Source: Candidatus Woesearchaeota archaeon (lineage in GTDB: Archaea; Nanobdellota; Nanobdellia; Woesearchaeales; 0-14-0-80-44-23). From it: a DNA stretch of 64,000 nucleotides. A program made the translations under genes and the position numbers. Location of the stretch: the NCBI GenBank assembly GCA_038874135.1, contig JAVZCZ010000001.1:704001-768000 (forward strand). Reading direction: 5' to 3'. Shown piece after piece: positions 40,000 through 42,330 of the stretch. A model generated the notes under the pieces. It was given only the letters and a program-made list of their open reading frames with translations, was not told the origin of the DNA and ran no database searches. The first letter of the stretch is position 1; each line of letters starts with the position of its first letter.

Positions 40000-42330
40000 A
40001 TGAAAAGGTACCTTTCACTGCTCATCTTTTCAATAATAATACTTTCAATGTACTTAGTATTTTCATCTAAACCCGTCTCAGCAGCCAGTTCCACTTGTGG
40101 TAATGGTGTTGTTGATTCTGGTGAGCAGTGTGAGTTGCCGGGTAGTGTGAATAATTTTTATTGTTTGCAGTCTACTGGTGTTTGTTCTGGTAGGCTTTTT
40201 GGTGTTAGGGATTCTTATGGGGATTGTAATGCTAGTTGTGGTTGTGTTTTTGATTCTTTTAGTTTTTCTTGTAGTGTTGGTCATTGTGGGGCTGAGTGTG
40301 CTAGGGATTCTGATTGTGATGATGGTAATTCTTTTACTGTGGATAGGTGTGATTTGAGTAATTGTAGTTGTGTGCATTCTGCTGTTGGCTGTTCCGGTTC
40401 TAATTCTTCTCTGTTGAGTAGGTTTGTTCCTTCTAGTTGTGTGAACGCTTCTGGTAGTTTTAGTAGTTATTGTTCTGGGAATAGTGTTGTTTTGTTTGGT
40501 TGTAATTTTGGTAGTGGTAAGTGTGTTAGTGTTTCTTATGATTGTAGTTCTTATAATATGACTTGTGCTGGTGGTTATTGTAGTGCTTGTTTGCCTGGTT
40601 ACGAGTGGGTGGATGCTTCTGATCACAGGAAGGGTTGTAAGCCGGTTTCATCTTGTGGTAATGGTGTTGTTGATTCTGGTGAGCAGTGTGAGTTGCCGGG
40701 TAGTGTGAATAATTTTTATTGTTTGCAGTCTACTGGTGTTTGTTCTGGTAGGCTTTTTGGTGTTAGGGATTCTTATGGGGATTGTAATGCTAGTTGTGGT
40801 TGTGTTTTTGATTCTTTTAGTTTTTCTTGTAGTGTTGGTCATTGTGGGGCTGAGTGTGATTCTTCTCATCCCTGCGCTGCTACTGAGTGTGATTATTTGG
40901 ATGGTTGTGTTGGTTCTACTTATAGGGATTATCATGATGTTGCTAATTTTTGTGGTGGGGATTGTGTGTGTAGTCGTAATTCTTGTACTTCTTTTACTGA
41001 TTATCCTAATGATTCTAGGTGTGTTTCTCAGTGTAGGGTTGATTCTGATTGTGATTGGTTGGATCGTTCTTTTTGTGTGGGTGATTCTGTTTATCGTGTG
41101 GATGGTAGGTGTGTTGGTGGTGTTTGTGTGAATGGGAGTGCTGTTTTGGTTAGTGATTGTAATGGTTTGGATAGGACTTTTTGTGTTGGTTCTGTTTTGA
41201 AGAGGGAGGATGGTTTTTGTGTTGGTGGTGTTTGTAGGTCTAATGTTAGTGTTGTTCGTGATTGTGATGATGGTTTGTTTTGTAATGGTGTGGAGTCTTG
41301 TGTGGGTGGTGTTTGTGTTTCTGGTGTGGCTGTTAATTGTTCTGTTTTTGATGTGCCTGGTGTGGCTAGTTGTTTTAATGTTCCTGATGGTAATCCTTTG
41401 ACTTGGGATTTTAGGGCTGCTTTTGTGAGTGTTTGTGATGAGGCTTCTCGTTCCTGTACGAGAGGCTCGCTTAATATTACTTCAACTTGTGACAAGGAGA
41501 GGTGTGGCGCCAGCTGTGTTTTAGGAGAAGTTCAGAATGAGAGCTGCGGAATTGGTGGTTATAGAGTTAGGAGCTGTACTGCATCCTGCACCTGGGGCAA
41601 CTGGAGTGACTGCCAGGATCAAAAGGAGTGCATACCCGGAACTGTTGAAAGTAAACCTTGCGGATATTGCGGAACTTCTAAGAGAAGTTGTAACTTAAAC
41701 TATACCTGGACTCCTTGGGGAGAATGTTTAGGGCAGGGAGTTTGTGCTCCGGGCTCAGTACAGCAACAGAGATGCGGCTTTATGCTGACCGGCATTCAGA
41801 TTAGAAACTGCACTTCTTCCTGCGTTTGGACGAGCTGGGGAGAATGCACTGGAGAAGGAGAATGTTACCCTGGAATTAAAGAAGAAAGGGAATGCACTGT
41901 TAACGGCTACTCCGGAGTTCAGTATAGAAATTGTATGTCCAACTTCAAGTGGAGCTCATGGAGTGGCTGCAAACTTCCTAATGAGGATATAACCGTTGAG
42001 TCCCTGCGAATAATAAATGGGGATTGCATAGAACCCGGGCATTCTCTAATCGCGTCTCTAGACATAGATTACAGCAGTTACCGAGAAGGAAGCATAACAA
42101 TAACAGCAGTAATACAAGAGCTGGGCGTAATATCCAGAGTAGGACCTATCGATGTGAGAGAGAAAGACAAACTTTCAAAGATAATCTTATTAGAAATTCC
42201 CCAAGATGCTATTCCAGGAACCTACTATGTTAGATTTACAATTAACAATGACTACAGAAGGGTGAGATATAGGGAAATCACGGTAAGCAGAGCTTGCGGA
42301 GTGTGCCCTGATTACTGCACAGGCAAATAA
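40000..42330 (+). CDS. Secreted cysteine-rich repeat protein with C-terminal Ig/CARDB-like domain
   Basis: Signal peptide; CGNGVVDSGEQCE (myxobacterial Cys-rich-repeat-like) twice; CDDG motifs; four C.PG...CG...R.C...W..W..C repeats; ELGV...IP....PGTY domain. Confidence 0.85.
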   Translation: MKRYLSLLIFSIIILSMYLVFSSKPVSAASSTCGNGVVDSGEQCELPGSVNNFYCLQSTGVCSGRLFGVRDSYGDCNASCGCVFDSFSFSCSVGHCGAECARDSDCDDGNSFTVDRCDLSNCSCVHSAVGCSGSNSSLLSRFVPSSCVNASGSFSSYCSGNSVVLFGCNFGSGKCVSVSYDCSSYNMTCAGGYCSACLPGYEWVDASDHRKGCKPVSSCGNGVVDSGEQCELPGSVNNFYCLQSTGVCSGRLFGVRDSYGDCNASCGCVFDSFSFSCSVGHCGAECDSSHPCAATECDYLDGCVGSTYRDYHDVANFCGGDCVCSRNSCTSFTDYPNDSRCVSQCRVDSDCDWLDRSFCVGDSVYRVDGRCVGGVCVNGSAVLVSDCNGLDRTFCVGSVLKREDGFCVGGVCRSNVSVVRDCDDGLFCNGVESCVGGVCVSGVAVNCSVFDVPGVASCFNVPDGNPLTWDFRAAFVSVCDEASRSCTRGSLNITSTCDKERCGASCVLGEVQNESCGIGGYRVRSCTASCTWGNWSDCQDQKECIPGTVESKPCGYCGTSKRSCNLNYTWTPWGECLGQGVCAPGSVQQQRCGFMLTGIQIRNCTSSCVWTSWGECTGEGECYPGIKEERECTVNGYSGVQYRNCMSNFKWSSWSGCKLPNEDITVESLRIINGDCIEPGHSLIASLDIDYSSYREGSITITAVIQELGVISRVGPIDVREKDKLSKIILLEIPQDAIPGTYYVRFTINNDYRRVRYREITVSRACGVCPDYCTGK
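40094..40300 (+). repeat. 207-bp perfect direct repeat, copy A (copy B 40652-40858)
   Basis: Identical by eye from CTTGTGGTAATGG to GCTGAGTGTG; offset 558 bp, in frame. Confidence 0.92.
40652..40858 (+). repeat. 207-bp perfect direct repeat, copy B
   Basis: Identical to 40094-40300. Confidence 0.92.

Follow-up and report, generated by a model that had tools for sequence, protein, structure and literature searches.

A near-saturated G+T island over the module-shuffling zone of a Cys-rich archaeal surface-protein gene is a GRINS-type skew tract

We describe a keto-rich (G+T) island in the gene for a secreted, Cys-rich modular surface protein of a Candidatus Woesearchaeota archaeon. The gene lies in a stretch of 64,000 nucleotides, called the window here, that comprises bases 704001-768000 of the source genome (G000; GenBank assembly GCA_038874135.1, one contig of 909,956 bp with 40.8% GC). 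The protein matched no Pfam family, and the gene is laid out as follows, in window positions, with K3 standing for the share of codons that have G or T at the third position.

40000-42330, + strand: the whole gene, from the open reading frame listing; secreted Cys-rich modular surface protein, 776 aa, 10.8% Cys
40000-40092, + strand: signal-peptide region of about 31 aa, a hydrophobic N-terminus ending VSAASS in translation; native codon usage, K3 0.34
40096-41457, + strand: keto (G+T) island, 454 codons, 98% G/T third positions, modules A-X-A-B-C
40094-40300, + strand: module A copy 1, a 68-aa Cys module, first copy of a perfect 207-bp repeat
40301-40651, + strand: module X, single copy in the gene, G+T 0.74
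40652-40858, + strand: module A copy 2, other copy of the perfect repeat, a gene-conversion tract
40859-41457, + strand: modules B and C, single copy in the genome, G+T 0.78, with old internal repeats at 65-78% identity
41458-42330, + strand: unskewed remainder of the gene, with four Trp/Cys repeats and a C-terminal Ig-like part; native codons, TGC freely used

The island edges come from a maximum-likelihood two-boundary fit on the gene, which returned positions 40096-41457 (1362 nt) and a G+T content of 0.773 in the segment versus 0.503 elsewhere in the gene. The original prediction for this locus, made from the sequence alone, had placed the start of the skew at the first base of the repeat (40094) and its end near 41450, past the 207-bp duplication, and the fit bears out both edges. 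The left edge falls within 2 nt of repeat copy 1, at the junction of signal peptide and mature protein, while the remaining three repeat edges are all internal to the skewed segment. The repeat itself (40094-40300 = 40652-40858) can be read straight from the sequence, and repeat searches concur. Since 300-nt windows of the genome average a G+T of 0.512 with a standard deviation of 0.056, the island is far beyond chance. Its GC skew is +0.56 and its TA skew +0.54, at a GC content (0.403) that is the same as that of the genome; in 150-nt windows neither skew falls below its minimum of 0.37 (GC) or 0.40 (TA).

The bias is codon-periodic. G+T amounts to 0.76, 0.58 and 0.98 at codon positions 1, 2 and 3, third positions consist of 80% T, 18% G, 1.8% C and 0.2% A, and codons ending in A or C number 9 of 454. 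Cys codons, offered in the original prediction as an internal control against an effect of amino-acid content, behave as it stated, with a TGT:TGC ratio of 58:1 within the island and 9:16 beyond it. The skew is not tied to the present repeat: the single-copy segments are as skewed as the repeat (G+T 0.74 in 40301-40651 and 0.78 in 40859-41457, versus 0.79 in the copies), and 948 of the 1362 skewed bases are single copy. Because most of the island is single copy now, the skew is separable from present-day duplication. Of the nine A- or C-ending codons left in the island, five lie either at most 50 nt upstream (40602-40650) or at most 17 nt downstream (40872-40875) of repeat copy 2, and may mark the edges of the last conversion event. 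Three antisense open reading frames on the - strand (40078-40626, 40648-40935 and 41091-41495; 182, 95 and 134 aa; Thr/Ile/Asn/Pro-rich) were rejected as genes; such long antisense frames run through the island because an A+C-rich strand lacks stop codons. Separately, module C holds a Cys motif, DC.DG.FCNG.E.C, at 41260-41345 (aa 421-448), which is a widely shared Cys-repeat unit with 55-79% identity over about 30 residues to many proteins of Phycisphaerae/Planctomycetota, Myxococcota and Acidobacteriota.

Substitution patterns indicate what kind of change produced the island. At four-fold degenerate sites the island has 84% T, 13% G, 2% C and 0.5% A, and the gene outside it 32% T, 12% G, 23% C and 33% A. 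A model in which native codons change by A>G and C>T alone was rejected because it predicts about 43% G at these sites, where 13% is seen; T therefore acts as the sink. Synonymous first positions obey the same rule, with Leu encoded by TTG 15 times, CTT twice and CTG once. Compared with the unskewed orthologue of genome G004, the counts of forward and reverse changes at positions 1-2 are 107:19 for A>G, 26:14 for C>T, 76:19 for A>T and 23:10 for C>G, and at position 3 they are 44:0, 44:6, 104:0 and 7:0, while in the part of the gene outside the island substitutions are roughly symmetric. Thus, all four amino-to-keto classes are asymmetric relative to orthologues, and not transitions alone. The shift dragged protein composition along: Ile makes up 0% of residues inside and 8.4% outside the island, Lys 0.9% and 4.0%, Val 12.6% and 6.2%, and Phe 5.5% and 1.6%. 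With 98% G/T at third positions and 84% T at four-fold sites, the skew is a saturated, codon-aware equilibrium. Amino-acid identity to the orthologue of the same genus (G001) is equal inside (58%) and outside (61%) the island, which argues that the segment is native and not imported.

Orthologues place the island in an evolutionary frame. Genome G001 belongs to the same genus as G000, and G002 and G003 to the same family. Syntenic orthologues occur in G001-G004 and G023, with lengths of 930-1349 aa (1015-1349 aa in G001-G003), so that the G000 gene, at 776 aa, is the shortest of the set. Module order reads A-X-A-B-C in G000, A-X-A-B-A-B-C-B-A-B-A-B-C in G001 and A-B-C-B-C-B-C in G003, and the relatives carry B and C modules 2-5 times. 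The region after the island (41458-42330), on the other hand, is collinear in all orthologues, with a fixed copy number. The G000 island spans exactly the module-shuffling zone and stops at the first fixed-copy Trp/Cys repeat.

Within this zone the A modules evolve in concert in three lineages. Their DNA identity within a genome is 100% in G000, 74-91% in G001 and 93% in G002, compared with 63-80% between genomes; the orthologous A1 and A2 modules of G001 are just 78% identical, and G002 has a perfect repeat of its own, of 260 bp. Because A modules cluster by genome and not by position, and because G002 has its own perfect repeat, gene conversion must have occurred repeatedly, and the 207-bp repeat of G000 is a recent gene-conversion tract between two A modules. 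Skew follows copy number in the relatives as well. A-module K3 is 1.00 (G000), 0.68-0.79 (G001) and 0.72-0.84 (G002) where the module is multi-copy and 0.35 where it is single copy (G003), and in the orthologues of family f1 repeated versus unique parts have K3 values of 0.73/0.68 vs 0.49 (G001), 0.86 vs 0.52 (G002) and 0.57-0.63 vs 0.35 (G003). The single-copy parts of the G000 island would then be relics of former repeats in a gene that has shrunk.

The island has counterparts elsewhere in the genome. With thresholds of 150 bp and 80% identity, self-BLAST of G000 gave just 13 hit pairs, in about 7 families, and all pairs except one weak one have large, same-signed GC and TA skews. Strong keto islands in a third-position scan number five; all lie on the + strand, between 744 and 783 kb of the genome, and they are of three cassette types, namely the island of the Cys-rich gene, twin ATPase cassettes and a pair of propeller-like cassettes with 91% identity over 915 bp. 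The twins, 1156 bp long with diverged flanks, lie in the window.

51239-52394, + strand: keto island, ATPase cassette in a 793-aa gene, 100% identical to 55419-56574
55419-56574, + strand: keto island, ATPase cassette twin in a 1180-aa paralogue, 100% identical to 51239-52394

Mirror-image repeats also occur. A 63-bp tandem array (genome 293144-293545) has 0% G/T third positions (A 82%, C 18%), and two giant paralogues (genome 343-347 kb and 672 kb) have repeats whose coding strand is 86-87% A/C at third positions. With one sign or the other, almost all long repeats of G000 carry this signature. This upholds the original proposal of a general process that marks repeated coding modules, but not the idea that G+T always sits on the coding strand, since the mirror repeats have 86-100% A/C third positions there. 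The segment encoded by the 63-bp array is Gln/Asn/Lys/Glu-rich and coiled-coil-like. A 393-bp tandem duplication (genome 527346-528142, 99.8% identical), within a giant - strand Cys-rich gene with X-like modules, has a moderate keto skew on the coding strand (G+T about 0.63).

The sign of the skew appears to follow replication polarity. We took the G000 origin to be the orc1 gene together with an AT-rich gap, a choice with which cumulative GC skew conflicts in G000 and agrees in genome G099. The sole orc1/cdc6 gene of G000 is at 587.7-588.9 kb, and the gap directly upstream of it (586733-587710), the largest intergenic gap of the genome at 978 bp, with 20% GC and short repeats, is likely oriC. 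With the origin at orc1, the keto-rich strand has leading-strand polarity in each of the six skewed families of G000, fork-co-directional genes being G/T-coded and head-on genes A/C-coded. G099, a complete genome from a different family of the same order, provided an independent check. The rule predicted an origin within 277-477 kb, and orc1 was found at 440 kb, adjoining an AT-rich, repeat-bearing gap at the GC-skew minimum, with 69% of coding sequence co-directional. Four of the four skewed families of G099 fit the rule. One of them, with A/C-type coding, is a pair of 643-bp repeats at 99.5% identity in adjacent genes of the - strand (G099:C1:867590-868232 and 869264-869906), with 97-98% A/C at coding-strand third positions and a + strand G+T of 0.83, which makes it a mirror-type GRINS, a class of tract taken up below; also skewed is a 750-bp family whose five copies lie at 277 kb and 477-495 kb. 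We regard the polarity rule as a new lead and not as an established result.

A related asymmetry extends over a whole genome in G049, a relative assembled in 14 contigs (loci L156-L204). There, third positions have a keto/amino asymmetry at contig scale, genome-wide and whatever the gene orientation, that includes housekeeping genes and is unusually strong for a whole genome. In + strand terms, third-position G+T of + and - genes is 0.25 and 0.28 on contig C12 and 0.21 and 0.29 on C7, and 0.51-0.76 on C4 and C8. With many contigs and no gene-orientation bias, leading and lagging strands are unassignable in G049.

Mismatch repair offers a possible molecular context. A NucS_C match lies at genome 828208-828552 (E = 8e-40), a profile search of the genome gave no MutS_V match for MutS, and NucS is the sole mismatch-repair enzyme found in G000. 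The mismatches that NucS favours are G-T, G-G and T-T, while it acts little or not at all on A-C (PMC8228993), and in C. glutamicum, a NucS bacterium, C>T and A>G mutations favour the leading strand (PMC6159521). By base-pairing logic, keto·keto mispairs (G·T, T·T, G·G) turn A or C into G or T in the nascent strand. Amino·amino mispairs drive the reverse change, and mixed mispairs leave the keto content as it is. As a rough proxy for island abundance, we counted runs of a periodic (KNN)x45 pattern in 150 other genomes of the order. NucS is present in 12 of the 13 genomes with at least 100 long periodic-keto runs versus 59 of 150 overall (Fisher p=6e-5, phylogeny-uncorrected); the one NucS-negative genome with a high count, G148, owes its count to low-complexity repeats. 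Additionally, NucS occurs in G000-G003, whose repeats are skewed, and no match above the curated cut-off was found in G004 and G023, whose repeats are unskewed. Strong keto/amino asymmetry thus seems to track NucS across the order, a new lead in the form of a correlation among related genomes. The literature searched contained no experiment tying NucS to GRINS.

GRINS, described by Nivina et al. (PNAS 2021; PMC8256042), are duplicated regions with intense, correlated GC and TA skews that are strongest at third codon positions, shift amino-acid composition and are tied to gene conversion. They are widespread, recode genes and speed up domain swapping, and the paper mentions single-copy skew regions as possible precursors or relics (PMC8256042). 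It offers no mechanism, although its authors raise deamination of single-stranded DNA as a possibility, and it mentions neither archaea nor mismatch repair (PMC8256042). The island meets this description on most counts. In absolute terms its GC skew averages 0.57 and its TA skew 0.53 (threshold >0.15), the two are correlated along the gene (Pearson r = 0.86) with G+T of 0.76, 0.58 and 0.98 by codon position, and its A modules group by genome and not by position. Duplication at >80% DNA identity covers 2 x 207 bp only, at 100%; the remaining 948 bp have no copy in the genome at ≥80% identity. We conclude that the island is an archaeal GRINS-type skew tract that falls outside strict membership on the 500-bp duplication requirement, and so belongs to a known, unexplained class.

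The likeness is close. In both, skews are intense, abrupt, positively correlated in coding DNA, strongest at third positions and found in both signs; Gly, Val and Cys go up while Thr, Gln and Pro go down; conversion between homologous modules is implicated; and some skewed regions are present in one copy only. The island differs in lying in an archaeon, outside the coverage of the paper, and in a surface-protein rather than a polyketide synthase (PKS) gene, in a far stronger skew (0.56/0.54 against the 0.15 threshold, 98% K3), in having one sign over 1.36 kb and in a sign that is uniform relative to the orc1-linked origin in G000 and G099.

Other known systems share parts of the pattern. Prokaryotic concerted evolution by gene conversion likewise brings modules closer within a genome and leaves sharp tract edges, but a keto skew of one strand at unchanged GC content is not what ordinary or GC-biased gene conversion yields. 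Replication strand asymmetry shares the G+T versus A+C axis and the leading-strand C>T and A>G changes (PMC8228993, PMC6159521), and the NucS substrates G·T, G·G and T·T are the mispairs that raise nascent-strand keto content; genome-scale skews, however, are of a few percent, whereas the island skew is local, saturated and repeat-linked. Fungal repeat-induced point mutation (RIP) likewise leaves directional base changes in duplicated DNA. Under RIP the changes are C>T only, AT content rises, genes are inactivated and the copies diverge. The island instead has a GC content of 0.403, has lost A as much as C, and retains an intact reading frame and copies that are 100% identical. A RIP-like process was rejected on these grounds (GC unchanged, intact frame, identical copies). 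A diversity-generating retroelement was also rejected: the complete genome has no RVT_1 match, and the repeat copies are identical, with no adenine differences.

The explanation that we favour, and that we consider on balance probable, is that this is a GRINS-type tract in which the recombining A-X-A-B-C zone lost + strand A and C as far as the protein allows. A substitution or conversion drive with a single direction would operate while DNA is synthesised across the repeated modules in association with recombination; it would affect the strand whose 5'->3' direction leads away from the replication origin, and purifying selection would filter the result. The likeliest molecular source would be keto·keto mispairs (G·T, T·T, G·G), the substrates of NucS/EndoMS.

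Several observations weigh against this explanation. Duplicated stretches here measure 207-219 bp, short of the >500 bp of GRINS. The background of G000 lends the replichore assignment no backing: its origin-corrected leading-strand GC3 skew is weak and opposite in sign (-0.04), with 47% of coding sequence co-directional, and the candidate oriC sits at the maximum, not the minimum, of the cumulative GC skew. An origin at the raw GC-skew minimum (80 kb) would reverse the polarity rule in G000, a rule based on two genomes with about 10 repeat families between them. The NucS association ignores phylogeny, and the run-count metric also picks up acidic and other low-complexity repeats. G049 has its genome-wide keto/amino asymmetry with almost no assembled repeats (one of at least 200 bp), and the model gives no reason why repeats amplify the bias. 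Moreover, GRINS are reported from phyla that have MutS and from PKS genes of amoebae and choanoflagellates, and in the PKS genes of Streptomyces their sign changes within 1 kb (PMC8256042), so that a NucS-only or replication-only model leaves the GRINS of MutS phyla, of eukaryotes and of flipping sign unexplained.

A broader form of the favoured explanation, possible but to be held tentatively, is that one rule lies behind all GRINS-type skews: recombination synthesis in fork direction would leave keto·keto mispairs unrepaired, or would leave only amino·amino mispairs, to which NucS is blind. Under such a rule, repeats would ratchet toward G+T on the leading-polarity strand, which would account for the sign of each island, for the keto/amino axis and for the enrichment of such skews in lineages that have NucS (Streptomyces, many archaea).

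An unlikely but substantial alternative dispenses with mismatch repair. Heat damage to single-stranded DNA, repeatedly exposed at recombining modules during resection and fork restart, could drive the strand toward T by deamination (C>T, A>G), depurination with A-rule insertion (A>T, G>T) and oxidation (G>T). T is indeed the sink at four-fold sites (T 74-84%, G 13-22%), A>T changes are common, strand polarity is uniform relative to the origin, and the GRINS authors themselves raised single-stranded deamination as a possibility. Heat damage should deplete G too, through depurination and oxidation, yet the GC skew is +0.56 and the C>G asymmetry favours G, and the NucS association is left unexplained.

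Two further explanations are both very improbable. The island could be foreign DNA, recombined in from a wholly keto-skewed lineage such as G049, and contig-wide asymmetric genomes do exist (third-position G+T of 0.21-0.29 or 0.51-0.76 by contig in G049), as do sharp island edges. Against an import stand the equal same-genus orthologue identity inside (58%) and outside (61%) the island, the syntenic module architecture in G001-G003, a K3 of 0.98 that is above any genome-wide level seen, and the separate in-frame imports that three unrelated domain families would need. Selection could also bear directly on the nucleic acid, for instance to keep out palindromes, restriction sites or RNA structure or to tune the translation speed of a surface-protein mRNA, in keeping with a G/T-only strand that cannot hold palindromes and a recoding that respects the protein. 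The mirror repeats, A/C-only at coding third positions, imply instead that sign follows chromosome position and not mRNA, the core of an intracellular ATPase has the same signature, and the dragged amino-acid composition looks like pressure rather than design.

The original prediction had favoured a shared pool of identical cassettes shuffled among surface-protein genes, with identical copies of the island's unique parts elsewhere in the genome. Module number and order do vary among relatives, and two other cassettes are common to paralogues. However, the 910-kb complete genome holds no such copy: BLASTN of 40301-40651 and 40859-41450 (E<1e-5) returned nothing but an internal repeat of a module, at 72% identity, and a genome-wide TBLASTN with the island gave only paralogous modules at 34-48% identity, among them a distant paralogue of module X (34% aa identity) in a giant gene at genome 522-531 kb. 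Protein scans of metagenome and genome contig collections found only distant relatives, at up to about 59% identity, the named ones from Woesearchaeota and Pacearchaeota (DPANN) assemblies. Because the 948 single-copy bp have no second copy in the genome at the DNA or close protein level, this assembly has no pool of identical shuffled cassettes, and such a pool is a highly unlikely source of the island. Least credible of all is a retro-copy or diversity-generating process, or an assembly or base-calling artefact, which sharp segment edges and identical copies might suggest: no reverse transcriptase was found in the genome and the copies have no adenine-specific differences, while strict 3-nt periodicity, an intact reading frame, a conserved protein and the same phenomenon in independent assemblies exclude an artefact.

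What our analysis adds to the GRINS literature is the concerted evolution of the A modules with an island laid over the shuffling zone, the four-class asymmetry, the polarity rule and the NucS link. In this archaeon, whose genome spans 0.9 Mb and encodes very few repair genes, the skew is near saturation and lies mostly on DNA that is now single copy. If one rule does lie behind GRINS-type skews, the island of the Cys-rich gene would be a fossil record of past module recombination. The comparisons give three checkable statements, concerning the sign set by replication polarity, the four driven amino-to-keto classes and the co-occurrence with NucS. Should they hold, compositional islands would become readable as maps of past recombination, and modular surface proteins and polyketide synthases would have one mechanism of evolvability in common.

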